Assembly: GCA_964499705.1 (NCBI GenBank)
Contig: CAZCME010000011.1
Coordinates: 122,206-142,205 of the forward strand
Source: an uncultured bacterium
GTDB lineage: Bacteria > UBA8481
Direction: 5' to 3'
DNA: 20,000 nt
The translations under genes were made by a program, and so were the position numbers. The notes beneath the pieces were generated by a model that saw only the letters and a list, made by a program, of their open reading frames with translations, did not search any database and was not told the origin of the DNA. This document shows, one piece after another, positions 12 through 17,792 of the stretch (positions are counted from its first letter, which is position 1; every line of letters begins with the position of its first letter).

Positions 12-713
12 ATGAGTCAGCTGGTAATCATCACCAGCCTGATTACGTCGATGGTATGCGTGCAGATGCCGCTGGAGATAGCGGCAGGAAAGGAGATAAG
101 ACAAATGCTCTGGTCGCGTGATTATGGCTTTGTAAGGCGATACGTCGAATTTGTGGTTTTGGAGACCGTTCGTGCAGCGCTGGCGTTATGGATAGTCCTG
201 TGGCACGGCGTCATCTTCGGTCTTGCGGCGGGCGCCGCGATCATACTATCGAGCGATCAAACGCTCCTTTCCATCGTCGCCTGTTATCTCGGCGCGGTGA
301 TCGCGGGCGTCTTCTTCTACGTCGCGACACCGGGCATTTCCTGGCGAGTCATACGGGATTCCGTCGGTGAGGCGCACCTGGAGGTCGGTGTGCTTCCTCA
401 TGAAACGATGGCGGTTGAAGAGTTTGTTCGATGTATACGAGAAAAATGGTTTCGAAATCTCAACGAAGGAGGCGAGGAAGATATCGAAGCCGATGAGGTT
501 GTGGCTGCAGCGGCGGAGGCGGAGTCTTTGCCGTGCGACTGTGACGAAGGAGGAGCGGATGCAAACAAAGCTGAAGAAACGGGTATCGGGGATGTCGCGC
601 GTGAGGATTGCCCTCTCGCGCTCAATGGCGAGGAATTCGTCCTGCGGGACGCATTCCTCATGGACGTGGCGCCGATCGATTCGGGCGCTCAAGGAGAACA
701 ACATGTTCAATAA
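12..713 (+). CDS. Hypothetical membrane protein with acidic C-terminal tail
   Basis: 233-aa ORF with 2-3 hydrophobic segments (ALALWIVLWHGVIFGLAAGAAIIL; LLSIVACYLGAVIAGVFFYVA) followed by an Asp/Glu-rich tail. The ATG at 12 is part of ATGA (12-15), consistent with coupling to an upstream gene. The stop overlaps the next gene. Confidence 0.75.
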   Translation: MSQLVIITSLITSMVCVQMPLEIAAGKEIRQMLWSRDYGFVRRYVEFVVLETVRAALALWIVLWHGVIFGLAAGAAIILSSDQTLLSIVACYLGAVIAGVFFYVATPGISWRVIRDSVGEAHLEVGVLPHETMAVEEFVRCIREKWFRNLNEGGEEDIEADEVVAAAAEAESLPCDCDEGGADANKAEETGIGDVAREDCPLALNGEEFVLRDAFLMDVAPIDSGAQGEQHVQ

Positions 714-1523: not shown

Positions 1524-3077
1524 GTGAATTCGCCATCGTCCGGATTCGTTTTCTTGCTGGTTGCGGGCAGCCTTGCGCTGCCCGCGCTTGCGGTCGCGGA
1601 ATCCCTCTGGCTGGATGTCAAGCCCGGGACACCGGTTGGCGTGTCCTGGGCCGGGGCCGAGACCATGACGCTCATCGAGGAGGCGTCGGCATCCGGCAGG
1701 ACGCAGGAGGAAGCGACGCGCGCCGCGGTGGTCATGGCTCGCCTCAAGCTCTCCTCCTCCTTCGGCATGTCATCGCTTCGCGAGCGAGTCGTCGTCAGCG
1801 AAGATCTCTCCTCTTCGTCATCATCTTCTCGCATGTCGCGTGATGCGTTCGCGGACAAAGTTTCTCCGGATTTACCCATGTCGCTCCTTCGTGCGATCAG
1901 AATTTCATACTCGGAACTTCATGACGCTGATCGCACGAGTTTCATGGCTCGGGCAACGCTGGGTCTGCCTGCCCAAAATCTGGAGGACGCGCGGCGCCGG
2001 GCTCTGGAAACGTTGAAAGATTTACGCTCGGCCGCAGAAAGGGAGCAATCGAACCAGCGCGATGCCATCATGCGCCAGGGGATAGCGGCGCTGCAACGCG
2101 CGCGCACCTCGGTCGGGGTCTCGAACTGCATCGAAGAGATCGCGGCGATCGAAGGTTCGTTGGAGGAAGCGGCCAATCTCGGGGTTCCGACGCCTCAAAC
2201 CGAATCGCTTCGTACTTCTTGTCGTGTTGGCCGCGAGTGGATCCAGAGATACACGAATCATACATTCAACTGTGACATCATCGAGTCCTCCTCGACCGTG
2301 TCGCCTCTTGCTCGATTGATCGAGGCTAATGTGATACGGGAAGCCGGCATGCTTGGATTGACCGCACGCGTCCGTCATTTGATGGCGGGCTCCATCCGTA
2401 GTAGTGCGACGCCTGGTTCGGGAAGCATGTTTCGCGTCGCGCGACGGACGACTCCCTCGCTGATCCGTCTTGCCGATTCGGCCGTCTTCTTTCCTAACGT
2501 CCGGTTTGCCCGCGACGTGAGCGATCGCGATTTCATGACGGAGGGCGCCGATCTCGAAATTAACCTTCCGACATTCGGTCCCGCGGAACGGGCTCTTTCA
2601 GCACTGGGGCCTTCGTCAGTGCCGGCCTTTGATGGTCTCGCGCGTTCGATTTCCATATTTTCCCGCGCCCGATTCAGAGCGATGCCCGATTTGTCGGCGG
2701 ACACCGTGGAGGTTTCTGATCGGGCGCGTACTGGAAATCCTGATCGATCTCGGACCGGAGTTCTTCTTGCGATCGATAACGGTCACGGGCTTATTCACGT
2801 CGAAGGCCGGACCTGGGTCTGGGTCTGGCTGCCCAACGTCACCGATCCTGATCTTCCTGGGTGGCGTGTGATTGCGCCCGCTCTCCGGATCTATTCGAAG
2901 CCAGATGCCCGCGGCCTTCGCAGATGGATTCGCTCGGCGCGGCAGAACGAAGGATTTTTGTATCAGGGCGAGGGAGAGGAATGGTTGGAGTTGGCGGACG
3001 AGAGGGGGCGCGTGGTCTCTGTCTGGAAGAACGATTTGAACGGCTCGGCCGGAGGAGAGGGATGGGTGAATCCATGA
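1524..3077 (+). CDS. Exported protein, N-terminal region weakly LPP20-like
   Basis: 517-aa ORF with a GTG start 2 nt after the previous stop and a signal-peptide-like N-terminus (FVFLLVAGSLALPALA). The segment ASASGRTQEEATRAAVVMARLKLS resembles the G-x-x-x-x-E-A-x-x-x-A-x-x-x-A-R pattern of LPP20-like domains. The family call is weak. Confidence 0.7.
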   Translation: MNSPSSGFVFLLVAGSLALPALAVAESLWLDVKPGTPVGVSWAGAETMTLIEEASASGRTQEEATRAAVVMARLKLSSSFGMSSLRERVVVSEDLSSSSSSSRMSRDAFADKVSPDLPMSLLRAIRISYSELHDADRTSFMARATLGLPAQNLEDARRRALETLKDLRSAAEREQSNQRDAIMRQGIAALQRARTSVGVSNCIEEIAAIEGSLEEAANLGVPTPQTESLRTSCRVGREWIQRYTNHTFNCDIIESSSTVSPLARLIEANVIREAGMLGLTARVRHLMAGSIRSSATPGSGSMFRVARRTTPSLIRLADSAVFFPNVRFARDVSDRDFMTEGADLEINLPTFGPAERALSALGPSSVPAFDGLARSISIFSRARFRAMPDLSADTVEVSDRARTGNPDRSRTGVLLAIDNGHGLIHVEGRTWVWVWLPNVTDPDLPGWRVIAPALRIYSKPDARGLRRWIRSARQNEGFLYQGEGEEWLELADERGRVVSVWKNDLNGSAGGEGWVNP

Positions 3078-3730
3078 AGGCACTGGTATTGTTGATTCTC
3101 ATCATCATCATTTTCGTGAGCATCGTGACAAGCGTCCGCTCCGACTATCAGCATCAATTGCTTAACGCTCTGTTGGGTCGCGAAGCAAGCGCGGTTGCTC
3201 CCATATTGCCCGGAGTAGGGGCATCTCCGGATTCGATCGCGTTGATCGGATTGACCGGGGGCGCAATGGTGCCGCTCTACAGAGCGGCGGACCCTTTGTC
3301 ATACGAAGCGACGCCGATCCGCTGGCTTCTTAAGCGCGATCTGGCTCGATATCATTTTGTCAGCGCTAGTCCGGATGGATTCCTTATCATCGCGGATTCC
3401 AACGATACCACGAGGAATATCCGCGTCTTCGCGGGTGATGTCGCGCCTGATACGAAGGGCGATGTCGGTCTTGATCCCTTTGCGGATTCGCGAGCTCTTG
3501 TCGGTGATCAGGCCGTCGAGATCTTTGACATGGATCCAACCTCGAGGCTGTCCGCACCCGCTCATATTGTGACGTCCGGCGCGCTCATCACGCTCGCCTA
3601 CATTCCCGATGACGCTCCAGATGCCGCGCCAACACCATTAGTGCTATGCCGGCGCAGTAACGGACGATTCATTACAGGTATTGTGCCGAAAGCCGTTCTT
3701 GAGCAATCCGAGGAGGCAGATCATGACTAG
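3074..3730 (+). CDS. Hypothetical exported or membrane-anchored protein
   Basis: ATGA overlap at 3074-3077. The N-terminus MKALVLLILIIIIFVSIVTSV is a signal or anchor helix, followed by a beta-rich-looking domain (218 aa). Confidence 0.75.
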   Translation: MKALVLLILIIIIFVSIVTSVRSDYQHQLLNALLGREASAVAPILPGVGASPDSIALIGLTGGAMVPLYRAADPLSYEATPIRWLLKRDLARYHFVSASPDGFLIIADSNDTTRNIRVFAGDVAPDTKGDVGLDPFADSRALVGDQAVEIFDMDPTSRLSAPAHIVTSGALITLAYIPDDAPDAAPTPLVLCRRSNGRFITGIVPKAVLEQSEEADHD

Positions 3731-4511
3731 AGTCATTCGCAATCTTCTCGTTCTTTTCACGCTATCCGCTGTGATAGCTCACTTCTGGCGACCGGATTCC
3801 GGCGGACCAGGTGGCCGGTGGATGACGAATATAATTGTCGAGGTGCCGTCCGTGATGGAGCGCTTCGTCGGCCCGTTGGGATTTCGCATTGGTGCCACCC
3901 TCGCGATTGCATGGGCACTGGTTCGCATTCGCGCTCGATGGCGTAAATCAGAGTTATGGAGGATTCAGCGCCCCTCGGTTTCCACCGTGGGCCCACGCCG
4001 CGCACCATTAACCGTCACGGTGATGAATCCGGAAGAAGCCGCTCTTACGCGTCGGAAGGAAATTCGGCGCCTGGCCGCTCATCATCTCCTGGATCGTGAC
4101 AATTCCGGAATGAGCGAGCGCGAGGCGAGGCGGTTGGTCGCGGAATGCGCAGCAGCATTCCTGGATGAGAATTCCGATCTGGACGTTCATTCCGCAGCGA
4201 AGCGGCTTGCAGATGAAGCGGATCACCTCCGTCGGCAGAAGGCAGAGGACAGGGAGCGTGTTCAACGTCGGCAAAGAATTCTGGATCAGGCCGTGCGTTT
4301 TCTAGTGGAAGGAACTCCGAAGTTGACTCCCGCAGTTGCTCAGGCGCGTGTCGCGGCCGTGGCGAAGGACATATTGATCGGCGGCACGAAGGAAGACGAA
4401 GCCAAAGTGGCGGAGCGATTGGCGATCGCTGCATATTTGGAGCGCATTGATGAGGGGCGTATCCATTCAGATGCGGAAACGGGCTCATATCGAATGCGAG
4501 GCGCGCAATGA
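3723..4511 (+). CDS. Membrane protein (two TM segments) with a tandem-duplicated helical domain
   Basis: AGGAGG at 3711-3716 precedes the ATG at 3723. Two hydrophobic segments are followed by two copies of a helical unit of about 60 aa (nt 4050-4232 and 4266-4445); 262 aa. Confidence 0.8.
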   Translation: MTRVIRNLLVLFTLSAVIAHFWRPDSGGPGGRWMTNIIVEVPSVMERFVGPLGFRIGATLAIAWALVRIRARWRKSELWRIQRPSVSTVGPRRAPLTVTVMNPEEAALTRRKEIRRLAAHHLLDRDNSGMSEREARRLVAECAAAFLDENSDLDVHSAAKRLADEADHLRRQKAEDRERVQRRQRILDQAVRFLVEGTPKLTPAVAQARVAAVAKDILIGGTKEDEAKVAERLAIAAYLERIDEGRIHSDAETGSYRMRGAQ

Positions 4512-5095
4512 ACAGAACGTCGATTCACAAAAGGGAGGCAAAGAAGCTTTCCATTACGACGCTGTCGCGGGCGGAAAAGGACTTCTCCAAAGCGTTGGCG
4601 GAACAAGTGCTCGAACATGTCTCAACGACCGAAGTTGCTCGATTTCGGGGCGGCGACGGCTCAATCGATGAGCGAGGTTTTCTGCAATCGAAGTCCCTGC
4701 GCGGGATCGTAAAGCGGATGATCGGTACGGCAGCCTGTCCGCTTCCGGTCTCATTCTCGTCGAATGCGGCACTTTTGATGCGTATCGGGCGTTCGGTCCT
4801 TCGGCGATTGTCGCATTGCCCGGTCGCCGCATGGAAACCACTCGATGTGAAATGGGAATTTCTGAAATGCTTCGGTAACGAGCATGGGAGAGCCCTTGCG
4901 TTTCGGGTCGATCAGGAAAAAGTTCTCATATTGCTTATTTCGGATAAACAGAATGTCGCGATTTCGTGCGATGAGATCGCTTCGTTGCGTTGCCTCATAC
5001 TCGAAGAGAACACCCTTTTAAGCGGACGCGTCAAGTTCGTGATGGGTGTACCGATATCCACTCGCCATTGCCGGGATAAGGAGGTCGAAGCATGA
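4508..5095 (+). CDS. Hypothetical protein
   Basis: 195-aa ORF with ATGA overlaps at both ends (4508-4511 and 5092-5095). No motif recognised. Confidence 0.7.
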   Translation: MNRTSIHKREAKKLSITTLSRAEKDFSKALAEQVLEHVSTTEVARFRGGDGSIDERGFLQSKSLRGIVKRMIGTAACPLPVSFSSNAALLMRIGRSVLRRLSHCPVAAWKPLDVKWEFLKCFGNEHGRALAFRVDQEKVLILLISDKQNVAISCDEIASLRCLILEENTLLSGRVKFVMGVPISTRHCRDKEVEA

Positions 5096-6903
5096 CCGCC
5101 GCCGTTCTGGCTTTTGAGCGACTCGATCGATACAAGCGAATGCGCCTCCTCCAGAAGGTGAATCGCCTGCGAAAGCTCCTGGTTCCTGAAGTCTTCGCCT
5201 CTCTGCGGTGCGTTCTCGATCATCCTGTGGCTGACCTGCGATCACTCTGTATGGAATTGAAGAGCGCCGGATTGATACCAGCCGCTATCACGGAATTCAC
5301 GGAGGCCTTCACGCCACCGGAGCCTGATCATTACGCCTCGTCCGGATTCGTTCGACTTCTCGAAGTGATAGAAGAGAAGTGCGAAGTTCTCGATCCTCCT
5401 CGCTTCATGCGCCTTCTTGCCGAACATCCGGAATGTCCGTGCCGCAGAAAGTTGGCGCATGCATTCAGAATTCTTCCGCCCACGAAGCACCTGCGCGGTT
5501 TGCCTGTCGGCGACGACCGCGCGCGCCGACTGATTTCCGGGCTTCGTTCCACTGAAATTCAATTCGCAAAAAAGGCGATTGAGCGTAACGCGCCATTCAT
5601 CATCGTGGACGACGGTGGCGAAGCGGCCAGCCTTTTTGCGCTCGCGGCCGAAAAGGCGAAGGTATCGGCATGGGAATTGACCATCGCCAATGCCTCGGAA
5701 ATGAACGAAGTCACGCTTGAGCTGGCCTCAGTTCAGCCGTCCCATGTCCTGATTTCGTGGGTCGAAGGGCTGGAATGGAAGACTATCCTTTCTTTCTGCG
5801 CCGGCACGACGACACCCGTACTCAGCATGGGATCGGCGTCCTTCGGTCTCTTCACACGTGATCGTGCGCATGCGGGTGTGCCTTACATCGTGATCGGCGC
5901 GCCACAAGACGAGTATGTATCGATCGGCATTCAATCGGCGTATGAAGTTCCGGAAGCGGCGGCGAAATATGTGGCGAGGCTGGTTTCTGTATTAAGGCGT
6001 GTTCCTCCAATCCGGGTCGTGTCGAGCGTGCTGGAGGATTCTCAAGTTGTCCGCGAATCCGAGAGTCTGCGCGCCCGCGCGGCCCGCGAATTTCCGTATG
6101 ACATCGCGGACCTCGAAGATCTCAGAACAGGCCTCGCTCGGATCGATACCGAATGGGCGAAGAAATTCGTGGGGCAGACAAGAGCGAAGGAGTCCATTCT
6201 CACGGCTCTCGAGTCACATTTGGACGAATGGAACCTCGGGCCAAGCCGGATACTTTTATTGGCCGGTTCGCCCGGCACCGGAAAGACGTCCGCGGCGAAC
6301 TGGCTGGCATCACTGATGACGGGAGGCCGAAAAGTATTCTTGAGCGGCACCGAGTATCTGCATGAATATTCGGTCAGCACGCTTCTCGGCGCAGGCCCGG
6401 GATATGTGGGTCACGAGATGCCTGGGGTACTGGATCCGATATTCACTCATTCCCTTACAACGCTCATTGTGGACGAGGTCGATCGAGCTCATCCGAGCAT
6501 TGCACGACTCCTGCTCGTTCGTCCCGGTACGAACGGCTCCATTGTCGACTCGTTTGGCCGCACGATGCGTCCCCCACTCATTATTGGAACCACAAATCTC
6601 GGTTATACGGGCGCCGGTCTGGCCGGGCTCGCGCGCGATACCGAAGACGAGGCGTGGCATGTACGAAGGTTGCTAACCGAAGAACTCGGGGAAGAAGTGC
6701 TCTCCCGATGCCAACTGGTGCTCTTTCATTCTTTCACCGCGGAAGAAATCGATGAGTTGATCGCAATGTCGTTGGGAAATAAATATTCGAAGGAGGAACT
6801 TTCGGCGGTATGGAAGAAGCTGGGGCCGCGGCATCGAAATTACTCGGCTCGCGAGGTGCAGAGCGCATGCGGCGCTGTTACCGGAAAGAGGAATAGTGCA
6901 TGA
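5092..6903 (+). CDS. Clp/Hsp100-like AAA+ ATPase with intact D2-type module and degenerate D1-like region
   Basis: Strong RBS TAAGGAGGT at 5077-5085. The C-terminal half has ClpA/B D2 motifs: FVGQ, Walker A GSPGTGKT (6265-6288), EYLHEYSVSTLLGAGPGYVG pore loop, Walker B IVDEVDRAHP, DSFGR and TTNLG. Confidence 0.88.
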   Translation: MTAAVLAFERLDRYKRMRLLQKVNRLRKLLVPEVFASLRCVLDHPVADLRSLCMELKSAGLIPAAITEFTEAFTPPEPDHYASSGFVRLLEVIEEKCEVLDPPRFMRLLAEHPECPCRRKLAHAFRILPPTKHLRGLPVGDDRARRLISGLRSTEIQFAKKAIERNAPFIIVDDGGEAASLFALAAEKAKVSAWELTIANASEMNEVTLELASVQPSHVLISWVEGLEWKTILSFCAGTTTPVLSMGSASFGLFTRDRAHAGVPYIVIGAPQDEYVSIGIQSAYEVPEAAAKYVARLVSVLRRVPPIRVVSSVLEDSQVVRESESLRARAAREFPYDIADLEDLRTGLARIDTEWAKKFVGQTRAKESILTALESHLDEWNLGPSRILLLAGSPGTGKTSAANWLASLMTGGRKVFLSGTEYLHEYSVSTLLGAGPGYVGHEMPGVLDPIFTHSLTTLIVDEVDRAHPSIARLLLVRPGTNGSIVDSFGRTMRPPLIIGTTNLGYTGAGLAGLARDTEDEAWHVRRLLTEELGEEVLSRCQLVLFHSFTAEEIDELIAMSLGNKYSKEELSAVWKKLGPRHRNYSAREVQSACGAVTGKRNSA

Positions 6904-9068
6904 AGCGATCAAGCCAGTCCTATCAAAATCATACAACCCGTCTTTCGCTCTTGATTCTTCACGAAGCATCGCAGCACATGCGATCGCGAACAGAGCTGAG
7001 GCGCGGAGACGTCGAGGCCGCGCTCACAGAGCTTCAGGCTCGCTGCCTCGACAAACCGGTGATCAGAGAGGTCATTTCCGCCGCATTTGATGATCTGCAT
7101 TCAAAAGACTCTCAGACGGTCAGGGTGGTAACGGCGCTTGCCGAATTGAGTCGACGCTACGCCGGACCCACACTGTATGAACGAGTAGTGAAAGCGTTCG
7201 TCGCCGGCGGTAGGCATGAACTGGAATTGTTGTCCGCGTGGTGGCCCGAGGATATCGGTCTTGAGAGCGATATATGCGCTGTTGATGAGAATTCGGATGA
7301 CATTGTTGTTCCAGACTCCAGGTTTCTCCGTGTCCCAACATTCGAAGAAGATTCGGCGGCGGACATGGAATCCATGTTGAATTCACCGGAATTCAATGAG
7401 ACGCCGGGAATCGATCTGCTTGATTTCAGGAGAGCGGTGGAATACCGGCGATTTGTCGGTGTCGATAAAATCGTCCGGGATGTGGCGGCGCAACTCGGGC
7501 AGGGTCGCAGCGTGGTAATCACGGCGCCTCCCGGCGCGGGCAAGACATCCGTCGTATTATCTCTCGCGCTGCAGCATTCTCTCGGCCTTTTACCCGCTCT
7601 GGGCGATCGCCTGCTAAGGCATCTTTCGTTGCGGGACATGATGGGTGAGCATGTAGGCTATGTGGGGGGCTTGGAACAGAATGTCGAGGCGTTGCTCGCT
7701 CATCTTCGGGATCTGGTAGTCAGAACGGTCGTGTTCTTTGATGAAATTCATCTTATGGTGGGAGCAGGATCAGGAAATGCCGGCCCCGGTAAGAGCAGCG
7801 CGGATCTTGCAAATTTACTCAAGCAAAATCTCTCCACCGGCGAACTCCAGGTTCTCGGAGCATCAACGAGCCTTGAATGGTCGAGGGTCGAAATATCGGA
7901 TCCGGCGTTCGCACGACGCTTCATCAAAATATCGTTACCTCTTCCGACAGGCGCCATGCTCCGAGAGCAATTTCAAGCCAGCAAGCCTGCGTTCGAGACG
8001 GCCAGCGGCTTCAGGTCTTTTTTTGAGGAAGGAGCGGTGGAGAAGATTCTCGAGATCGCCGAAGAATCGTCCAAGCAGACCGGACAGGCATCCGCCGCTC
8101 CTGATCGTTTCTGGCGCATCGCCTCTCTTTGTCTTTCGCAGGAAGCGAAGGGAAAAGTCGAAAATGCTTTCGACCATGAGCCGGTAGCTATCAACGCGGA
8201 GAAGGTCCTCGAGGTATGTTTTCCCGAATTTACATTCGAGATTCCAGCGCTTCATCTGGCACGCGGGTCAATCGCCCGCGCCATAAGTCTATATTGCGGC
8301 GAATCCGCTGGAGAACGTGTGCAACGCTTCGTCGCCGTGGAAAACGGTCGCAGAACCGGGGGGCCGCTCCTACTTCTTCATCTGAAGCACAGCAACTCGA
8401 ACGGTCAGATCGTGAATTTCGCGCGCGATCTGGGCGCGGCATTGTTCGGGGGGCAGCATCCCCATTGTGTCACTCTGGATGCCGCTTGGATGCCGAAGGA
8501 ATCGATGATCGAGGCGCTCGCGGGACTTCCCGCCCGGTCGGTCTGCATCCTGTTGAGAAGCCGATCTGAAAAAGATCTGCTCGAAACCTTGTTCGGAGGT
8601 CTCGTTCACTATGGAGCTTCCATACCTGGCCCCGAGAAGAAGGAGAGCGATGCCCTTCGAAGCTGTGTCTTTCTCTTCTGTGATGAGGAAGAGGATGAGC
8701 CGGGTCATCTGTTTGACGACGATCTTGCGAGACATATTCCGACGGTCATCTTTCAAGCGAAGGGCATGCGCGGCAATATTCGGAAGGATCTCAGCGCGCT
8801 GGCTGTCGATATCAAGAATGCTCACCCAAAGTATCGCCTGCATGTACCTGCGGCGGGAGATCGATTGTGGAAAGTCATTGAACCGCTGATTCGCCGGGAG
8901 GGGATGGATTCTCTCCGCAGCGAGATCATGCGTACTCTTTCAGACCGGAGGGAGTGCTCCGTTGCCGATGGTCCACCGTCCACGCTGCATCTCGTACCCA
9001 GAGGTTTCGATAACAAGAAAGTCGGATTTCGCATTCTGCCGAGCCGAAAGGACGCGTCGCGATGCTGA
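6900..9068 (+). CDS. Clp/Hsp100-like AAA+ ATPase with intact D1-type module and degenerate D2-like region
   Basis: ATGA overlap. ClpA/B D1 motifs are present: Walker A APPGAGKT (7524-7547), Walker B FFDEIHLMVGAG, DLANLLK, GELQVLGAST and DPAFARRF. The C-terminal part follows the D2 layout without Walker motifs. Confidence 0.88.
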   Translation: MKRSSQSYQNHTTRLSLLILHEASQHMRSRTELRRGDVEAALTELQARCLDKPVIREVISAAFDDLHSKDSQTVRVVTALAELSRRYAGPTLYERVVKAFVAGGRHELELLSAWWPEDIGLESDICAVDENSDDIVVPDSRFLRVPTFEEDSAADMESMLNSPEFNETPGIDLLDFRRAVEYRRFVGVDKIVRDVAAQLGQGRSVVITAPPGAGKTSVVLSLALQHSLGLLPALGDRLLRHLSLRDMMGEHVGYVGGLEQNVEALLAHLRDLVVRTVVFFDEIHLMVGAGSGNAGPGKSSADLANLLKQNLSTGELQVLGASTSLEWSRVEISDPAFARRFIKISLPLPTGAMLREQFQASKPAFETASGFRSFFEEGAVEKILEIAEESSKQTGQASAAPDRFWRIASLCLSQEAKGKVENAFDHEPVAINAEKVLEVCFPEFTFEIPALHLARGSIARAISLYCGESAGERVQRFVAVENGRRTGGPLLLLHLKHSNSNGQIVNFARDLGAALFGGQHPHCVTLDAAWMPKESMIEALAGLPARSVCILLRSRSEKDLLETLFGGLVHYGASIPGPEKKESDALRSCVFLFCDEEEDEPGHLFDDDLARHIPTVIFQAKGMRGNIRKDLSALAVDIKNAHPKYRLHVPAAGDRLWKVIEPLIRREGMDSLRSEIMRTLSDRRECSVADGPPSTLHLVPRGFDNKKVGFRILPSRKDASRC

Positions 9069-9763
9069 AAGCGGGAGCACGCCTGCTCGCCGGCTCCGCA
9101 TTGGTGATTGCAACATGCGCGCTGGGAAAGAATCTCGAGTTTCTGTGCGCAGGCGCCTACTTTGCTGCGCGCTGGGATGTGATCTGCTTCGCGCTGGGAT
9201 TCTGCGTGGCAGTCGGCATTAAGTTGATGATGCCCGAAATATGCCGGTTCGTGGAGACGCTCGATCATGAGATGTGCCACGCCATCGCCGCTTTTGCCAC
9301 GGGCGGCCGCGTGGAAGCGCTGGGCGTCTCCAGGGCGGGTTATGAGGGAGAAGTGAGACATACCGGCCGCCCCCTCTTTTCTTCGATCGCTCCCTACGTT
9401 CTCCCTCTCGCATGCATCGGCGCAACGGGAATTGTGGCGATTTCCGCCGAGCGCTATCGCCCTTGGGTGATCGGGTTATACGGCACTACGTTTCTCTTCT
9501 ATTTTGCGCGACTTGTGCGGGATCTCCAAGCCACGCTTCGGCTTTCATATGAACTGAGCGATATCAAACACCATCGCGTTCTATCCATTCTGGTGATCGC
9601 CGCAACGAACGCAATCTTGTGCGGAATCATGCTTTCGATCGTCTTTCGGATTTCGACGCCGCGGAGTTTCCTGGCGGCATCCGGAAGTGATGCAATCGTG
9701 ATCAGCCGAGAAATAGCGCGGCTGGGATGGACAATTTCGCAGGAGGTGTTGCGATGCCTGTGA
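9062..9763 (+). CDS. Membrane zinc metallopeptidase, M50B-like
   Basis: HExxH motif HEMCH (9266-9280) in the context HEMCHAIAAFATGGRV, followed by G-x-V, IAPY and a later SD. Multiple TM segments. This layout is typical of Peptidase_M50B. Confidence 0.8.
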   Translation: MLKAGARLLAGSALVIATCALGKNLEFLCAGAYFAARWDVICFALGFCVAVGIKLMMPEICRFVETLDHEMCHAIAAFATGGRVEALGVSRAGYEGEVRHTGRPLFSSIAPYVLPLACIGATGIVAISAERYRPWVIGLYGTTFLFYFARLVRDLQATLRLSYELSDIKHHRVLSILVIAATNAILCGIMLSIVFRISTPRSFLAASGSDAIVISREIARLGWTISQEVLRCL

Positions 9764-10893
9764 TTCATCAAACCAGCGATTCGGAACTTCTCGAAGCCCT
9801 CGAAATTGCGGCCGACGCGGCACCGGAGCCCATCCTTATCCTCGGAGAATCAGGATCGGGCAAGGAGATTATAGCGCGCGCCATAGTGGCGGCATCGTCC
9901 CGCGCCGATCGTCCGCTCATTCAGATTAACGCTTCCACGATCAGTGATGAGCTTGGAGATACATCGGTCTTCGGACATCGACGCGGCGCCTTCACAGGCG
10001 CGGACCGGGCACATGATGGATTGTTGGCCGCCGCTCATGGAGGCACACTTCATGTGGATGAAGTCGCCGATCTTTCGCTTCGCAATCAAGCTAGAATTCT
10101 GCGAGTGCTGGATCGACGCGGTGAGTATCGAAGAGTAGGCGAGGTGCTAATTCGCCAGGCGGACCTCTGGATAATATGTTCGACCAACCGCGATCTGAGC
10201 TTAGCCGTCCGCGACGGGCATTTCCGCGCCGATCTCATGTACCGCTTGGATGTCATCCGCGTCGACGTCCCTCCGCTTCGGGCGCGTCGATGCGATATTC
10301 CCGGGCTTATTGACGCAATTTTGCGAGATATATCTTTTGACCTGAAACGTTCCGTCCAGATCACGAGCGGTGCGCAGCGCGCTCTGATTGACCATCCTCT
10401 TCCAGGCAACATCCGCCAATTGCGAAATGTCCTCGTGCGAGCGGCTCATATGTGCAAAAGAGCCGACAGGTCAGCGCGGGAACTGGTGATCTCCGATACT
10501 GTGATCGATAAATGTCTGAGAATGAGCGATACGGGAATCGTGATCGATCGATCGACTGCGCCGGCGGTCCGGGAGCCCGTTCGGGACAAGGAAGCAGTTC
10601 AGCATCTTGCGCGCGACTGCGAATCGATTCGGCACATGGCTCGAAAGATCATCTCGATGGCGACAACCGGGGAAATGAAGATCACGGATCACACGATATT
10701 CGGAGAGGTCCTCCACGATCCCGGGGCCGTTGCTCTTTACCTCGTTCTGGAAGAAGAGGTCAGAACACTCGGCGGGAAGAGATGCAGCGTCCTGAGAAAC
10801 CTCGGCTGTGATCCCAAGGCGTTCTCGTCGTACGTGGCAAAAATCACCAAGCATCACCCCGAAGTTGTCCAAGCGGCAATGAAGCTCATATGA
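9754..10893 (+). CDS. Sigma54-dependent transcriptional activator (bEBP) lacking an N-terminal regulatory domain
   Basis: AGGAGGT at 9741-9747 precedes the ATG at 9754. Motifs: GESGSGKE, FGHRRGAFTGA, GGTLHVDEV, QARILRVL, TNRDL, FRADLMYRL, PGNIRQLRN. The C-terminal GGKRCSVLRNLGCDPKAF is Fis-HTH-like. Confidence 0.92.
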   Translation: MPVIHQTSDSELLEALEIAADAAPEPILILGESGSGKEIIARAIVAASSRADRPLIQINASTISDELGDTSVFGHRRGAFTGADRAHDGLLAAAHGGTLHVDEVADLSLRNQARILRVLDRRGEYRRVGEVLIRQADLWIICSTNRDLSLAVRDGHFRADLMYRLDVIRVDVPPLRARRCDIPGLIDAILRDISFDLKRSVQITSGAQRALIDHPLPGNIRQLRNVLVRAAHMCKRADRSARELVISDTVIDKCLRMSDTGIVIDRSTAPAVREPVRDKEAVQHLARDCESIRHMARKIISMATTGEMKITDHTIFGEVLHDPGAVALYLVLEEEVRTLGGKRCSVLRNLGCDPKAFSSYVAKITKHHPEVVQAAMKLI

Positions 10894-11150
10894 CGCGGTT
10901 CGCTGAATCAAGGCCTGGCGATTTGAATCAGCCGGGCGCCTATGCAGACTTCGTGGCACCAGCAATGGATGCGCTGATGCGCCGCGACGGTATTAGCGCC
11001 GAGGAAGCCGAGTTTCTCGTCCTGCGTGCCTTGCAGCTGGTCATCGTACGCTCTTCAGCGGAACTTGTGTCGGTCGTGGATGACATGCGCGCGCCGGAAT
11101 GTGCGGTGCGCTCTTCCGTGGACGAGGTCCGGGCATGCGCACCGGCTTGA
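10890..11150 (+). CDS. Small helical protein, ANTAR-like
   Basis: ATGA overlap with the bEBP gene; 86 aa. AMDALMRRDGISAEEAEFLV resembles the ANTAR pattern A-x-G-I-L-M-x-R-x-G-I/L-S-x-E/D-E-A-F. The family call is tentative. Confidence 0.6.
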   Translation: MTRFAESRPGDLNQPGAYADFVAPAMDALMRRDGISAEEAEFLVLRALQLVIVRSSAELVSVVDDMRAPECAVRSSVDEVRACAPA

Positions 11151-12478
11151 TGTCGGGTGCCGCCGCATATTCGAAGGAGCATCTTCGGCTGCTGAACTCG
11201 CTAATCGATGATTATCTCTCCGGTGGAGCATCGCTATCGGAAGTTCTTCACAGGGAAATCGAGGAGCTCAATGGGAGTCGAAAACTCCTCCTGCCGGCGG
11301 TGCTCGTAAGTTGTCTGGCAACCGCAGAAGATGTGAAAGCGTTTCTCACGACGTTCCGGTGTACCGTCTCCTCCAATTTCGAGGATGAGCCCTATCCCGC
11401 GCTCCGTTGTAAGCCGTGGACGCGCTCGCTGAGACGAGCATTAGCTCGCGACCGGCGGATCTGGGAGATCTTTTCGGAGTCGCGTTATTCGGCGGAGATC
11501 GCGGCCGCGTTCGTAACGAAACTCGATGCGGATTCGCTGCTGGCAGAGGGGGCGGTGCGCTTTGTCTGCGAAAATCCGAGGGGAACCGGAGTCCTCATCC
11601 GGATGCTGCGTGATCATGACCTGCCCGAGTGGCTCGTTCGAAAGGTCAAGACAGCGCTGAGGGAATTGGTCGACGAGTCGCCGCAGCCCCCGCGGCATCT
11701 GTTGAAGAGAGGGCGGGAGATATTCCGCGCATGCGAGACGGATTCGCGTGATCGCCACGCAGGGTGGGCTATTGACGTCGCGATCGAGGTGGCGCGGATG
11801 CTCGGTCCGTCGTCGAGTGTCTTTGTGAACTGCGAACGGCTGATATTGGAGCAGCCTGATTCCGTTGAGAGTGACATTCAGTCCCTTTACAGCCCGCTCA
11901 AGGCTGGCCAAAGGGCACACACGAAGATGAACAAGTCGGCGTGGAGGCAATTTCTTGTCGGCGCGAATTACGAAGCGCGAGCGCTGAAGCTTGTGGAGTC
12001 CGGTGCGCTCGCACGTCATGTGGACTCGGAGAGGATTGCGATGGTCGTCTCCTGCCTCATTCCGCCGTGGACTCTTCTGGAGAAACTAAGGGGGTTGGCA
12101 TTCGACGTTCTACAGAGTGGTCCGAATCAGCGATTCGAAGATGCGCTTGCTGCGATCGTCGCGAACTGGATGAAATACGCGGAGCCGCGGGAGGTCGAGC
12201 AGGGCGCGATTGGTGTCAAGTCGAAGTTGCTGACGTGGATCATCGCATCCGGTGCAAACCCTGCATTTACCGATACCCCCTTGCGCGAAATTGCATTCGC
12301 CGGCCGTACCGACACGCCAAGCGCTCTTCTTCTCCCGATTTCCTCCGAGTCGAATAGCCGACCGCGCAGATTTGTCTGGCTTTTACCGCCTGACATCGTG
12401 AGAGCGATGCTGGAGACCGGTGATAGCGGAAATCGGGACACCCACCGCGAGCCTGAGGCCCGATTTTGGGGGAAGTGA
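11135..12478 (+). CDS. Hypothetical protein, predicted largely alpha-helical
   Basis: ORF of about 445 aa overlapping the previous gene. The start is either ATG 11135 (GAGG upstream) or ATG 11150 (TGATG overlap). No motif recognised. Confidence 0.75.
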   Translation: MRTGLMSGAAAYSKEHLRLLNSLIDDYLSGGASLSEVLHREIEELNGSRKLLLPAVLVSCLATAEDVKAFLTTFRCTVSSNFEDEPYPALRCKPWTRSLRRALARDRRIWEIFSESRYSAEIAAAFVTKLDADSLLAEGAVRFVCENPRGTGVLIRMLRDHDLPEWLVRKVKTALRELVDESPQPPRHLLKRGREIFRACETDSRDRHAGWAIDVAIEVARMLGPSSSVFVNCERLILEQPDSVESDIQSLYSPLKAGQRAHTKMNKSAWRQFLVGANYEARALKLVESGALARHVDSERIAMVVSCLIPPWTLLEKLRGLAFDVLQSGPNQRFEDALAAIVANWMKYAEPREVEQGAIGVKSKLLTWIIASGANPAFTDTPLREIAFAGRTDTPSALLLPISSESNSRPRRFVWLLPPDIVRAMLETGDSGNRDTHREPEARFWGK

Positions 12479-12613
12479 GTGCGTTGCGACGATCGATAGC
12501 GTGGTTGATGCCTGTCTGGTGGAAATCCGTAGCAATTCCATAGAACTATGATGCCCGCCTGACAGTCGTACTTGAGTTTCATCGACTTGCATCTCGGGTT
12601 CAGCGTGATTTCG

Positions 12614-12629
12614 AGGCATGACAATTGCC
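12614..12629 (+). promoter_or_regulatory. Candidate sigma54 (-24/-12) promoter
   Basis: AGGCATGACAATTGCC has GG (12615-16)-N10-GC (12627-28) with GGCAYG and TTGC boxes. It sits in the only sizeable intergenic gap of a locus that encodes a bEBP. Against it: two flanking consensus positions mismatch, and the predicted start site would be only a few nt before the ATG at 12646. Confidence 0.35.
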
Positions 12630-12645
12630 CTTGAAGGAATCCGCT

Positions 12646-13350
12646 ATGCCATTTAGCTTCAATATCGATACCACCCCCTCTCGTGTCGCGCTCCTGGACC
12701 TTGATTCACCTTCATGGAGCGAGGACTGTGCCCGGCTCGGCGGGCGGGATGATGTTTTCGTCATCACGGACTCGGCATCTCTCGGCAAGGTCACGAGGCC
12801 CAATCTGATCCTGCGCCGTCCGGGATTGCGAACAGTCCTCGTGCCGCAGGCCGCCGATATTCCGTCTACCGAACTCGTTGCGGAAATATTTGCTCGTGGA
12901 ATCCCGCGGGCATATGGCCTCGTCATCTGCGCTCAGCAGCAGTCATTAAGCACCGTGATCGAAGCGATCGCACATGACGGTTCGGAAAGTGGATACCGAA
13001 AGATCCTGGGTGAAATCGGTCTTCGCGCACATGTACGCGAACAACGACTTGGTCGCCTGCTGGTGGCGACGACATTCCACTGCGCACGTACGCGAGATAT
13101 CGAATGCGCGGCCGACAATACCATTTCATACGGCACCCGGCTCGAGAATACTGGGAGGCCATGGCGTGAAGCATTCGTTCACCTTGCAGTCGAGAAGTCG
13201 CATCAGAAGGTAAATGTCGAACCACTTACTGATCGCGCCTTCGGTCGCTTGCGGAATGAGGAGCGGCTTCATCTGCAGATCGTCGGACGCCCCGGGATGC
13301 GAAGGGGCGGCGCGGACCTCTGTGCGCTCTTCGGGATGTGCGCGGGATGA
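12646..13350 (+). CDS. Hypothetical protein, degenerate DnaB C-terminal/RecA-fold-like
   Basis: AAGGA at 12634-12638 precedes the ATG at 12646; 234 aa. The ordered segments RVALLDLD, VLVPQAADIPSTEL, YGLVIC, YRKILGEIG, DIECAADNTISY and VHLAVEKSH parallel DnaB [45 protein letters not shown] and AEIIIAKQRN. No Walker A/B. The ORF is solid, the family call is tentative. Confidence 0.6.
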   Translation: MPFSFNIDTTPSRVALLDLDSPSWSEDCARLGGRDDVFVITDSASLGKVTRPNLILRRPGLRTVLVPQAADIPSTELVAEIFARGIPRAYGLVICAQQQSLSTVIEAIAHDGSESGYRKILGEIGLRAHVREQRLGRLLVATTFHCARTRDIECAADNTISYGTRLENTGRPWREAFVHLAVEKSHQKVNVEPLTDRAFGRLRNEERLHLQIVGRPGMRRGGADLCALFGMCAG

Positions 13351-14948
13351 ATTCGCCTCAACACAATGAAATATCATGTGGTTCACAGGTTCCTTCGAAT
13401 CCACCCAGGGTGATCTGTTCGTTCATGGATGACGATCACGACCGGATCACAAACACTGCCGGACAATACAATGACATCTCCGACCAGGTGAAACTGTTTA
13501 CGGCAATGGATCTCGTATCCGGATATCTCTCGCGCCGAATACTTGCGTGGCCGCCTTCAAACCTTCGGTGCGCACTCGGAGCCATTTTTGCCCGCGTGCC
13601 ATTATTTCTGATCGGAGGCGCAGGTGTTGGAAAGACGCTTCTGATGAGAACAATTGCGGATCTTGCAGGTGAGGGAGCGGCAATTCATTACGATTTATCT
13701 ACCTGCGATATCTTCCACATGGTGGGTCTCCCTGACGTCAGTAGTTACCACTCAGACGGCAAAACGGACCTCTCCTTCCGCACGCATTCGCGAAGCCTTC
13801 TAAGGAATCCCGGCTATATTTTGTGGGATGAAATCTCTCGGTCCACTTGCGAAAACCAGGCCCTCCTCATGGAAGCGATCGAATCCTCATCCGTGCTCGG
13901 GTTCAAAATCACGAGCCGTCACGTTCTAGCCTCGAATCCGACCGGCAACGGCTTCAAGAGCGTGCATGGCGTCGATGCGGCCTTGGCGGACAGGGCACTC
14001 GTCATGCTGAACGTCGACCAAGGGGCGTGGATCTCGAATCCGGAGCGGGCGGGCAAGTACGTCGTGCTGGCACTCGACGGGCTGGAATTCGGATCGGCTC
14101 CGACCGATGAGGAGAGGGCGGCCTTCTCCTTCCTTTCGACCTCGGTCCCATCTGCAGCATCGTCACTTCTGCAGAGCTTCCTCCGCAACGACGATCGACG
14201 AGCGGGTCTTGCGACGTTTACCAAGGAACTGGCGATGCATGCATCGTCGCTGGGGAGGGTCATTTCGAATCGGGTTCTCGTACGAACAGCACGCTTCCTG
14301 CCCTATCTCATCCTTCTGAACAAGGGAGACACGGAATCTGCCGTCCGTGATTGCGTAATCTCCTGTCTTCAGCACCGGTGCGAATTGCAAGAGGAGGCTG
14401 TCTCGCTCTGCGCGCGCCATGCCTATGAGGGACTGATGATGCCGCGTGATCCCGAACGCGAATTGTTGACGACGCTGTCGCGTATAAAGGACTCCGAAGG
14501 AAAGATGAGGGCTATCGTGGATTTTAAGCCTGATCCAATCTTTCTCACGTCCCAGTTTCGCCATGCACTCCAGTGCGTACGCGAATCGTGTAACGACAAC
14601 AGCATACTGCTGGAGATGGGAGTAGCGACCGTTTCGCGATGGATACGCGGCGGTTGCAAGAACGCGGTTGATATCAAGCGTGGGCTGGTCGACTCACTTC
14701 TATCCTGCCGCGCGAACCTGTTGCAGCGGTATTTGGAGCATGCAGTACCGCACTTTGCGCCTTCGCGTCAGCATCCTGTGGCACGTGCGGCGAACGCGGG
14801 CGCAAGTCAACTCGGGGATATCGAAGTGGAATTGGGGACCGATGATACTATCGGTGTGAATTCGCGGTTTTTTGCGACATTGGAAGAGCGATACGGTTCG
14901 AAGTATCAGGAAAGGCTGAGGAGGGAAGAACGTGCGGTCATCGGATGA
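13347..14948 (+). CDS. MoxR-type (AAA_5/AAA_3-like) AAA+ ATPase with C-terminal helical extension
   Basis: ATGA overlap at 13347-13350. Motifs: PLFLIGGAGVGKT Walker A (13614-13637), ILWDEISR Walker B followed by NQALLMEAI, sensor-1 ASNP, DAALADR arginine finger and ISNR sensor-2-like; 533 aa. Confidence 0.85.
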   Translation: MNSPQHNEISCGSQVPSNPPRVICSFMDDDHDRITNTAGQYNDISDQVKLFTAMDLVSGYLSRRILAWPPSNLRCALGAIFARVPLFLIGGAGVGKTLLMRTIADLAGEGAAIHYDLSTCDIFHMVGLPDVSSYHSDGKTDLSFRTHSRSLLRNPGYILWDEISRSTCENQALLMEAIESSSVLGFKITSRHVLASNPTGNGFKSVHGVDAALADRALVMLNVDQGAWISNPERAGKYVVLALDGLEFGSAPTDEERAAFSFLSTSVPSAASSLLQSFLRNDDRRAGLATFTKELAMHASSLGRVISNRVLVRTARFLPYLILLNKGDTESAVRDCVISCLQHRCELQEEAVSLCARHAYEGLMMPRDPERELLTTLSRIKDSEGKMRAIVDFKPDPIFLTSQFRHALQCVRESCNDNSILLEMGVATVSRWIRGGCKNAVDIKRGLVDSLLSCRANLLQRYLEHAVPHFAPSRQHPVARAANAGASQLGDIEVELGTDDTIGVNSRFFATLEERYGSKYQERLRREERAVIG

Positions 14949-15994
14949 CCGTAGATAGAAGTCCGAGCGAGCAGATTAGAGGGTTGAAATCTGCCTGGGC
15001 GTCATCGCGACGACGTGTCATCGACGTGCTCGCGGCTGCATTGTCGACACCAACCTCAACACTCGCTCGTGCTGCTATTCGATTCTGCCTGGAGGGTGAG
15101 CGCCGCGAAGCTCTTCTGAAACATCTCGTCGCTTGCCGAAAAGGAGACAAAGTGCTCGCGATGATGGCGGCCGCCGTGAGCGAGAATGAAGATGGATTCA
15201 AGCCGACGTCGTTTAGAGGCATGATTCTCATTCTGCGAAAGGCCGTGTTATCGCCGGTTTCGAAAGAAAATGCGACAAAGCCGGATTTTCTGCGAGTGAT
15301 CGAGAGGCAGGGCGCGACATCATTGATTGTGGCGCTGGCGCGCATCTCCGCGTCGATGCCGGAGATTCGGCGGGCCGAGAGTCTGCTCTGGGAACAGCAG
15401 AATCACGGTCTCGACCTCCGAAGTCAGACCGCGGCACTCTATCATGAGAAGCGTGTGCTGCGAATCTCGGATCATCCTTCGCGAAAAAAGGATGATACGG
15501 CCGACGCAATACGTCGGCGCCTGCTGGAAGGAAGTATTTCACGGAAGGAATTGTTTACAGTGATCTCGAATGACGGGGTGCGGGGCGGGGAGGCCAAGAA
15601 ACTCGCCCGTGTTGCTACTCTTCTTCTTTCCGATTGCGAAGTGCGCGAGGCGCTCGCAAGACTCCTTCCGGACCTCGGGAAACCGCCGGGTATGATCTCT
15701 CTGAGTTACATTATGCATGGGGTGATCGAGGCTTCGAAGCGGAGTCTTCAACCGCGCGCACTCAGCATCGGCGAATATGCCATTCTGACGAAGCAACCCG
15801 AGAAATGGTTCTTTGCTCCCACTTGTACTCCTGCGTACATCCAGAAAGGAAGCCGCCTTCGTGTCATCCATGATTCTCTGGAGATTACCGTGGTCGAAGG
15901 AGTAGATAAGGAGTCGCAGAACGGTGTTGCGGTCGAAGCGCCGCTCGCGGACAAGTTCGCGTTTCTTGTGCCGCTGGCTGTTGGGCTGGAATGA
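14945..15994 (+). CDS. Hypothetical protein downstream of MoxR
   Basis: ATGA overlap; 349 aa, basic and mostly helical. No vWA MIDAS motif (DxSxS) or HExxH seen. Confidence 0.72.
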   Translation: MTVDRSPSEQIRGLKSAWASSRRRVIDVLAAALSTPTSTLARAAIRFCLEGERREALLKHLVACRKGDKVLAMMAAAVSENEDGFKPTSFRGMILILRKAVLSPVSKENATKPDFLRVIERQGATSLIVALARISASMPEIRRAESLLWEQQNHGLDLRSQTAALYHEKRVLRISDHPSRKKDDTADAIRRRLLEGSISRKELFTVISNDGVRGGEAKKLARVATLLLSDCEVREALARLLPDLGKPPGMISLSYIMHGVIEASKRSLQPRALSIGEYAILTKQPEKWFFAPTCTPAYIQKGSRLRVIHDSLEITVVEGVDKESQNGVAVEAPLADKFAFLVPLAVGLE

Positions 15995-16055
15995 AACAAT
16001 CCCCATTCACCAGATTCTGTGGCCGGGTCGCCTTGACGAGGAAGAACTTCGCTCA

Positions 16056-16520
16056 ATGCCCATCTCCATCACTCGCGGCGCGTTTATCGCGGATGGCGTA
16101 CTCCCGGACAAACTGATGAGTGGATTCCGCGAATTCGTCGAAGAGCAGAAGGGTATTCGCGCACTTATCTGCGATGGTCTCGAACGCTACATTTGCGAGC
16201 CAGTGCATGACCCGAGAGAGTATCATAATCGATTGTCATCCATCGTGACGAGATTAGCGACGCTCGGTACGGATGTTGGGATTCCGATTCTGCTCTCCGC
16301 ATATATCCGTCGGGCTGCCAGGGATCGTGTCCCTACTCTCGCTGATGTTGATGGTGGTTCGAGAATCACCGGCATTTCGCGGGGGGTGGTTTTACTTCAT
16401 CCAGATTCTATCGGCATGATGGACGAGGTCGAGATCCGATTCCATTGCGGAAAGCCGCGACGATTGCTACTGAGCAAGGCGCGCCTGAACCGAGAACTCT
16501 GCCGGTTCGAGGAAGCATGA
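16056..16520 (+). CDS. Degenerate DnaB helicase C-terminal-like domain protein
   Basis: GIRALICDGL, YHNRLSSIVTRLATLGTDVGIPILLSAYIRR, RVPTLADVDGGSRI, VVLLHP and LCRFEE align in order with DnaB [59 protein letters not shown] and YTRFEN. No Walker A. The start is uncertain: ATG 16056, or TTG 15981/15924 in the same frame. Confidence 0.68.
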   Translation: MPISITRGAFIADGVLPDKLMSGFREFVEEQKGIRALICDGLERYICEPVHDPREYHNRLSSIVTRLATLGTDVGIPILLSAYIRRAARDRVPTLADVDGGSRITGISRGVVLLHPDSIGMMDEVEIRFHCGKPRRLLLSKARLNRELCRFEEA

Positions 16521-17356
16521 ACATCCTCGTCAAGATGGATTACTTCGCGAATGGCGAAAGGGCGACCTCCATCGGGATCGTCGCGGATGGATGTTCATTC
16601 CGGAACCCCTGCGGGATCCTCTGTCGCAATCAGGAATATGAATACGTCTACGGCGAGTTCTCCTACTGCGTGGCGCCTGCTCGAAAAACATTCGACGGCG
16701 AGCCCCTGGACATGCAGGTGATCGTCAGACAGGCCAGAAAATATTCGATACTCGATGTCATCCAACCTCGCGCGGATTGGATTGTGCGGTTCTCCGTGCT
16801 CAGGCGTGATGTGCGAAATCCCATTCGTCCCCTATCGACAGCTCAACTCAGACTGGCCGATTCCATAATCGAGGCGGAATCCGAGGATCTAGAACATGCT
16901 GTCGCCGCGTGGGTCGGACTGTGGACGGTATCCGGAGTCACGGGGTTGGATTATTCGGACGTTGGCACTCTGGCGAAGGGGGCGCGCTCGATCGCTCGGC
17001 AAGTTCAGCTATCGACGAGCGACTTCAAGGGCAAGCTCAAGAGGTTCCTGCCCGCGTTGTTGCCGAAGCGGCAGGAAAGAACGGGGCTCATTGTCGTAGT
17101 CACGCACCGTGGGAACGTCTCCCTGAGCATCTGGGAAGACGTCATGAAAGCGATTAATAAGCAGGTATCGGCTGAACCTGAGGTGGACATTCTCCAACAG
17201 TGTTTTGTTCTGCCAGACATGCATCCGGATCACATGCGCATTGTCATCTTTGACTGCAGCAACGTGGGAAGCGATTCAAGCAAGCCTGCCGCGAGTGCCT
17301 CTGGAATGACGAAGCGCGGTGCCCGACAAATCGCAGATGAGAGCGGAGAGGAATAG
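16517..17356 (+). CDS. Protein with FtsZ C-terminal-like half (H7/T7 loop plus C-terminal subdomain), no GTPase signature
   Basis: ATGA overlap; 279 aa. [30 protein letters not shown] resembles FtsZ [55 protein letters not shown]...[13 protein letters not shown] resembles [24 protein letters not shown]...ESMGDEIRVTVIA. GGGTGTG is absent. Confidence 0.7.
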   Translation: [279 protein letters not shown]

Positions 17357-17716: not shown

Positions 17717-17792
17717 GGCGGGGTAGCTCAGCGGTTAGAGCGGCGGTCTCATATGCCGTAGGTCGGCGGTTCAAATCCGCCCGCCGCCACCA
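17717..17792 (+). tRNA. tRNA-Met (CAT), elongator type
   Basis: 76-nt cloverleaf: D arm GCTC/GAGC, anticodon loop CT-CAT-AT, T arm GGCGG-TTCAAAT-CCGCC, discriminator A and encoded CCA. The G1-C72 pair and the lack of three consecutive G-C anticodon-stem pairs argue against an initiator tRNA. Confidence 0.93.

Follow-up and report, generated by a model that had tools for sequence, protein, structure and literature searches.

A pair of adjacent genes, which we refer to as A and B, in a stretch of DNA from an uncultured bacterium (GTDB lineage UBA8481; assembly GCA_964499705.1, contig CAZCME010000011.1, positions 122,206–142,205) raises the question of whether the two motor tiers of a Clp/Hsp100 machine can be supplied by separate proteins. 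Two-ring Clp/Hsp100 machines are homo-hexamers with both motors, D1 and D2, in one chain. A first-pass annotation of this 20,000-nucleotide stretch (hereafter the window, which is the end of a 142,205-base contig in a 4.67-Mb assembly) had described A and B as tandem Clp paralogs with reciprocal loss of ATPase sites, A having a dead D1 ahead of a live D2 and B a live D1 ahead of a dead D2. Both open reading frames (ORFs) were found on the + strand where it had placed them: gene A at 5092–6903, encoding 603 residues, and gene B at 6900–9068, encoding 722 residues, with the ATGA overlap of the B start and the A stop that it had reported present at 6900–6903. Between them the two proteins have just one live AAA+ module of D1 type and one of D2 type, each on its own chain. 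The D2-type module of A follows an orphan N-terminal half; in B an N-terminal region precedes the D1-type module and its lid, and an AAA+-like C-terminal half without a P-loop follows them. Our tentative reading, to which we would give slightly less than an even chance, is that A and B are very diverged, lineage-restricted Clp/Hsp100 descendants that supply complementary motor tiers of one unfoldase.

One live Clp module in each protein

The live D2-type module of A, residues 341–590 (6112–6861, + strand), was supported by profiles, motifs and AlphaFold2. Residues 341–562 matched nucleotide-binding domain 2 (NBD2) of T. thermophilus ClpB (4lj8_A, E-value 7.6e-22), and the PDB sequences matching A with E-values of 0.01 or less were all (51 of 51) Clp/Hsp100 D2 modules or Lon. 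Pfam AAA_2 scored 43.5 bits against a cut-off of 27, and hhalign, run with D1 and D2 comparison profiles built from 60 Clp proteins, aligned A to the D2 profile with a probability of 99.8 (E-value 1.4e-27). The NCBIfam ClpB, ClpV and ClpA models matched A through their D2 parts only and far below their equivalog cut-offs, the best being ClpB TIGR03346 with 70.6 bits (cut-off 1232.1). The D2 motifs that the first-pass annotation had called complete are all present at residues 392–539, namely Walker A at G392–T399, the GYVG pore loop at 437–440, Walker B at D461/E462, sensor-1 at N502 and the arginine finger at R539; a candidate sensor-2, R587, was placed by one MAFFT alignment and not by another. 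With a 43-row alignment AlphaFold2 modeled residues 340–590 at a predicted local distance difference test score (pLDDT) of 80–94, and the modeled D2 superposed on ClpB NBD2 (4lj7_B) with a template modeling (TM) score, TMt, of 0.62 and a root-mean-square deviation of 2.9 Å over 225 columns. Run on A with no alignment, AlphaFold2 gave a mean pLDDT of 37.4, which was unusable even for the D2 module.

We also noted that A residues 507–516 (6610–6639), GAGLAGLARD, resemble the GAGFGFAKRD stretch of ClpC-type proteins, the site of the ClpP-docking loop. The loop length at this place in A is that of the ClpB type, which has no ClpP-docking loop.

The live D1-type module of B, with its lid, spans residues 167–440 (7398–8219, + strand). 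Residues 205–372 matched the D1 of ClpA (6uqe_A, E-value 1.9e-17; 44 PDB sequences matched in all), and hhalign aligned B to the D1 profile with a probability of 99.3 (E-value 4e-20) and to the D2 profile with 95.1. The best NCBIfam match of B was ClpA TIGR02639, with 62.7 bits against a cut-off of 993.15. Here too the motifs were as annotated earlier, lying at residues 209–404: Walker A at 209–216, Walker B at 277–282, paired finger arginines R339/R340, and a lid motif, APDRF, at 400–404. The GYVG that had been noted in both live domains lies in B at 253–256, at the place of the KYRG pore loop. A PHROG profile of a two-ring Clp-like protein with 764 positions (phrog_4871) aligned to B residues 173–425 over its positions 182–425 and to A over its positions 495–683.

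Within this D1, between Walker B and sensor-1, B has a second P-loop-like string, GNAGPGKS (residues 292–299; 7773–7796). Its position is that of the conserved GAGxxEG stretch, and it is probably a chance look-alike.

An AAA_2-type D2 module was thus found in A only, and a D1 with paired arginine finger and lid in B only. Pfam scans of A and B detected no Clp_N (PF02861), M-domain or ClpB_D2-small domain in either protein, and hhalign against a Clp N-domain profile gave probabilities of 0.1–0.2 for both. Compared with each other by BLASTP, A and B were similar only from the live P-loop to the pore loop (21 of 60 identities, E-value 3e-4), and neither non-catalytic half showed similarity to its live counterpart in the other protein.

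The non-catalytic halves

Beyond its live module A has 340 residues, at the N-terminus, and B about 285, at the C-terminus. The first-pass annotation had taken A residues 1–340 (5092–6111, + strand) as a D1 that has lost the Walker A lysine, and the C-terminal half of B as a D2 without Walker A and B. The loss of the P-loop stood up in both cases, since the pattern G/AxxxxGK[ST] occurs neither in A 1–340 nor in the C-terminal half of B, the one copy in A being that at 392–399 and the two of B (209–216 and 292–299) both lying in D1. The claim that these halves track D1 and D2 in sequence did not stand up. The domain mapping against Clp proteins that had been suggested alongside it, run here with hhalign (A 1–340 against D1, B 373–722 against D2), placed only the live modules and gave a probability of 0.2 for each non-catalytic half. 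The best hhalign stretch in the C-terminal half of B, residues 505–546 on the stretch past the D2 P-loop, was the same one that the first-pass annotation had picked out, and had a P-value of 0.31. There was no Pfam family at E-values of 10 or less for A 1–340, B 1–167 or B 373–722, and HMMER found one Clp domain per protein and no second one in either.

Tests against shuffled sequences gave the same picture. In local profile alignments the C-terminal half of B scored z 1.44 against D2 (21 of 200 shuffles as high) and the N-terminal half of A z −0.57 against D1 (137 of 200 as high). Whole-profile alignments gave z 1.37–1.40 for B (9–10 of 100 shuffles as high) and z 0.73–1.15 for A (13–18 of 100), in a test where true distant AAA+ proteins gave z 2.5–6.2 and unrelated ORFs of the window reached z 2.75. 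When the halves were placed with MAFFT --add, B matched 27 of the 109 D2 columns conserved at 90% or more (28.2 ± 3.6 in 60 shuffles) and A matched 33 of 122 such D1 columns (27.2 ± 3.9, with 7 of 60 shuffles as high); for comparison, the live modules matched 47 of 109 and 50 of 122. As judged by these sequence tests, the likeness of both non-Clp halves to D1 and D2 is at chance level throughout.

The residue-by-residue alignments proposed earlier for these halves are also not unique. FLFCDE in B (591–596) was the sensor-1 strand in the earlier alignment and is Walker B in that of MAFFT, and for FIIVDD in A (169–174) a P-loop strand and a Walker B relic are equally good readings. The two candidate registers for the C-terminal half of B put its Walker B strand at 546–552 or at 588–596. 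Both halves nevertheless belong to genes in which the coding-frame signal is clear from end to end: in A the codon likelihood of the true frame beats that of both shifted frames, and in both genes the dead half is as good as the live half.

Evidence at the level of fold separated the two halves. For B 373–722 the ten best family-bearing feature matches in the ESM Atlas were all AAA families, with scores of 0.90–0.92, on a scale calibrated on whole proteins rather than on parts of proteins and on which a first match of at least 0.9 arises for 4–10 in 100 shuffled proteins. In the Atlas model, B residues 437–716 (8208–9047, + strand) superposed on Clp ATP-binding subunits with TM scores of 0.50–0.52 over 253–256 residues, near the 0.5 border and in a whole-protein model with a mean pLDDT of 0.56; TM scores against MgsA/RuvB-type AAA+ proteins were 0.43–0.46. 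From these predicted structures we think it likely that the C-terminal half of B has an AAA+ fold, and it probably represents a P-loop-less AAA+-like domain at the place of D2, an assignment made on fold and without sequence-level support. For A 1–340 the top Atlas feature score was 0.79, graded as a lead only, and although its ten structure neighbors were all P-loop NTPases (AAA and STAND), their TM scores were only 0.38–0.44. With 42 Clp rows AlphaFold2 modeled A residues 126–333 at a pLDDT of 25–50, despite an alignment that was biased towards the D1 fold for this half. This low pLDDT gives a dead D1 no support in the model, and a wrong alignment register could also be its cause. That A begins with a degenerate D1 seems doubtful to us. 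Of the two stacked AAA+ folds proposed for each chain, the one at the D2 place of B has Atlas support at TM 0.50–0.52, and the one at the D1 place of A has weak support, at 0.38–0.44.

These results bear directly on the model put forward in the first-pass annotation, in which a single Clp gene was duplicated and reciprocal loss left A and B as its two-tier descendants, which now form an obligate mixed ring with live and dead sites alternating in each tier. The order of the genes (the D2 gene, then the D1 gene) and their sizes (603 and 722 residues against ~760 for ClpA-type frames) agree with a tandem duplication, the AAA+-like fold of the C-terminal half of B is what the model expects, and the P-loop NTPase neighbors of the N-terminal half of A point the same way. 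A comparable case is reported for LAP1 with Torsin, where an AAA+ fold that is itself dead completes the live site of its partner (PMC4358337). R611 of B (in LARHI) would lie at the finger position under the register of the first-pass annotation; it fits only one of the two possible registers, and this ambiguity of the dead half of B counts against the model. So do the N-terminal half of A, with no D1 similarity in any sequence test, no D1 fold from AlphaFold2 with a Clp alignment, and Atlas values (TM below 0.45, top feature score 0.79) that reach the level of a lead only; the confinement of A/B similarity to the stretch from live P-loop to pore loop; and the arginine fingers of the two live modules, which in such a ring would face dead sites. 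We consider the alternating ring unlikely. The fuller version, in which the two copies of a duplicated gene each lost a different ATPase tier and now work only as a mixed double ring, with the dead D2 of B and the dead D1 of A as structural, arginine-donating partners, we consider quite unlikely.

Search for relatives

Searches for relatives of either non-Clp half returned the query itself or nothing. A 1–340 had no match among 1.84 billion representative sequences, and B 373–722 found only B; as a query of its own, the C-terminal half of B matched none of 6312 candidates of 192–613 residues at E-values of 10 or less. Whole A gave 863 matches among 8000 scored candidates, all of them canonical Clp proteins, the best with 31% identity over 37% of A, and coverage in such matches went up to 47%. 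Among five genomes of the phylum the N-terminal half of A occurred in its own genome only (absent from 4 of 4 others). A set of 41 genomes, its own included, gave only D1-level Clp matches, the best foreign one being a canonical Clp D1 matching B with 70.3 bits. Metagenome contigs yielded two loci with 29–30% identity to B 167–367 only, and none of 78 pattern matches in genome contigs held a relative. In defense and phage libraries we saw only weak P-loop-level PADLOC matches and the one Clp-like PHROG. No relative of either half, and so no homologous pair in which the reciprocal pattern could be compared, was present in the collections searched. Elsewhere in the same genome there are five canonical Clp-like frames of 764–992 residues, so that the A/B pair is an addition to, and not part of, the housekeeping set.

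How A and B might work together

In our preferred reading, complementary tiers of one unfoldase, A and B would be made together from one transcript and would jointly handle the same substrates, forming a composite translocase with two motors, the D1 tier of B and the D2 tier of A taking the roles that one chain holds in ClpA, ClpB and ClpC. B would be a two-tier protein, its live D1 leading into an AAA+-like domain that has no P-loop and occupies the place of D2, and A would be a live D2 behind 340 N-terminal residues. Cooperation is suggested by the complementarity of the modules together with presumed co-transcription, and the gene order, with the D2 gene first, and the gene sizes fit a duplicated two-ring ancestor.

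The arrangement of such a machine can be addressed from the arginines. The paired arginines in NBD1 of ClpB act in trans, reaching the ATP of the neighboring subunit (PMC4239642). Because both live modules here keep their own trans-acting arginines (R539 in A, R339/R340 in B), rings of like with like come out slightly ahead of alternation; the sequence mildly favors them over strict A–B alternation. The geometry we somewhat favor would put A and B in separate rings with like-next-to-like contacts, either stacked on each other or working one after the other. A complex prediction of A 341–603 (with alignment and ATP) and B 437–722 (no alignment) scored 0.00 against a mark of 0.32, which speaks neither way.

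Several points weigh against cooperation of A and B in one machine, beginning with the limits given above for the Atlas model and scores of the C-terminal half of B. Physical contact between A and B is putative, and the searches returned no relatives in which co-occurrence of the two genes or selection on the dead halves would show. The ATGA overlap is not specific to the pair. A and B lie in a nearly gap-free chain of + strand ORFs that runs from before the window to 17356, and several further gene junctions in it have start/stop overlaps too, including that of A with the stop of the ORF upstream (ATGA at 5092–5095, with a Shine-Dalgarno sequence, AAGGAGG, at 5078–5084). The overlaps point to co-translation in general and to no special bond between A and B.

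Finally, neither protein lacks a motif that it would need to run alone as a single-motor hexamer. A and B could be two independent single-motor AAA+ proteins that act at different steps of the process served by the gene chain, with no binding between them and with non-Clp halves that serve as adaptor or targeting domains. The full homo-hexameric motor set in each protein fits this, as do the single-ring D2-type relatives (Skd3/CLPB) among the solved matches of A, the generality of the overlaps, and the presence in the chain of more AAA+ proteins (the sigma-54 activator and the protein of midasin/MoxR-like type described below). Against such independence stand the module types of the two adjacent genes, which are exactly complementary, and the AAA+-like domain at the D2 place of B, which points to a two-tier assembly. 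We regard independent motors as a possible but not a probable explanation.

The surrounding gene chain

Coordinates upstream of the window are given here with the prefix L014 (L014:18007–18021 corresponds to contig positions 120212–120226). The chain stretch from L014:~9853 to 17356 of the window is about 27 kb of mostly family-less ORFs; most chain products had no Pfam family. GC content at third codon positions (GC3) of the chain genes is 0.56–0.67 against 0.717 ± 0.094 for the long ORFs of the genome, which together with the lack of families suggests an island that was acquired or evolves fast. The proteins scanned, drawn from part of the stretch, included none with an integrase domain, and flanking repeats were not looked for. 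A tRNA-Met lies directly past the end of the chain (17717–17792, + strand). The PLD gene of the right flank was found in a relative on a contig that stops after 2.7 kb, which is uninformative for synteny.

This setting raises the possibility that A and B are decaying, non-functional remnants of clp genes acquired with a foreign island. Both genes are orphans, the GC3 of their chain is below that of the genome, and half of the recognizable sequence is gone in each. Set against this, frames of 603 and 722 codons are intact with no stops or shifts, all catalytic residues of the live modules are retained, and the coding-frame signal of the dead halves equals that of the live halves, making decay very unlikely in our view.

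The first chain genes of the window (12–713, 367–1521, 1524–3077, 2861–3730 and 3681–4511, all + strand) encode several membrane-type stretches or signal-like N-termini; the true starts of the ORFs 367–1521 and 2861–3730 are probably ATGs inside them, near 703 and 3071 and beside the preceding stops. Downstream of the pair, the ORF at 9062–9763 (+ strand) starts 7 nt before the stop of B and encodes an M50B-like membrane peptidase with HEMCH and three hydrophobic stretches, a partial and weak member of PF13398 (38.4 bits against 26). We considered whether A and B might feed this peptidase as a split FtsH-like machine, and rejected the idea for want of comparative support. PF13398 was matched in 26 of 151 genomes, including this one, and in the ±8 kb read around 20 of the 28 foreign places (150 other genomes) no locus (0 of 20) had a Clp D1- or D2-type ORF of at least 120 residues at an E-value of 1e-3 or less.

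The chain also encodes a sigma-54 activator-type AAA+ protein at 9727–10893 (+ strand), which contains GAFTGA, lacks a receiver domain and is classed by PADLOC and NCBIfam as PspF/RtcR-like, and a second activator of this type lies in or near the chain at L014:13606–15396 (+ strand). The fourth AAA+-type protein of the chain is a 536-residue P-loop protein at 13338–14948 (+ strand), weakly midasin-like (E-value 1.3e-7), of midasin/MoxR-like type and with a PHROG ATPase match. A perfect sigma-54 −24/−12 consensus (TGGCACGTGCTTTGC) lies at L014:18007–18021 (+ strand), between divergent genes and ~240 nt before the first chain ORF, and a site with two mismatches (AGGCATGACAATTGC) lies at 12614–12628 (+ strand), in the only real intergenic gap of the chain. 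Over the whole window sigma-54 site matches were not in excess (16 against 16.4 expected from shuffles), and a scan for sigma-70 promoters and terminators likewise gave no excess over shuffles.

Relation to known AAA+ machines

The closest comparison is with class I Clp/Hsp100 proteins (ClpA, ClpB, ClpC, ClpV/TssH). The D2 of A and the D1 of B align with these in Walker A and B, sensor-1, arginine finger(s) and pore-loop tyrosine, and B has the D1 lid. They differ in that module identity is only ~30%, NCBIfam scores are 63–71 bits against cut-offs of 885–1417, there is one nucleotide-binding module per chain instead of two, and the two live modules are on two chains with the D2 gene first. Beinker et al. 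reportedly expressed ClpB as separate NBD1 and NBD2 pieces, which shares with our reading the idea of D1 and D2 tiers cooperating from separate chains; those laboratory constructs are engineered cuts of one gene, with no extra 300-residue halves and no reversed gene order. Skd3 (human CLPB), whose N-terminal part carries ankyrin repeats, resembles A in combining a non-AAA N-terminal part with one D2-type motor, and is among the sequence and fold matches of A. The N-terminal part of A has no Pfam family at E-values of 10 or less, and, unlike Skd3, A adjoins a D1-type gene. Our literature searches turned up no bacterial Clp pair described as having lost its ATPase sites reciprocally; the nearest paper found (PMC10149685) deals with ClpI enzymes, which are intact double-ring proteins.

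Among hetero-oligomeric machines, Pex1/Pex6 likewise joins two paralogous two-tier AAA+ chains with degenerate sites in one double ring. It is eukaryotic, its D1 is inactive and its D2 active in both subunits so that loss is not reciprocal, and its assembly has been demonstrated, that of A with B being putative. TorsinA with LAP1/LULL1 is single-tier and eukaryotic, and Torsin is not known to have an arginine finger of its own. A live partner in need of an arginine is not what we found here, as A keeps R539 and B keeps R339/R340. The likeness lies in the joining of a live AAA+ protein to an AAA+-like fold that is reported to have a conserved arginine and no nucleotide-binding motifs (PMC4358337).

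The value of the pair is limited so far by its occurrence in one assembled genome and by the dead-domain claim, which holds for one of the two proteins and at the level of fold only. If A and B did form a mixed double ring with reciprocal tier loss, it would be the first double-ring AAA+ hetero-oligomer from a prokaryote, and no earlier one would have divided labor reciprocally between its tiers. More generally, such a pair would mean that hetero-oligomeric double-ring AAA+ machines are not confined to the eukaryotic Pex1/Pex6. The division of work between D1 and D2 tiers is still studied with engineered mutants, and a natural pair with one live tier per chain would lend itself directly to the question of which neighbor each tier depends on.

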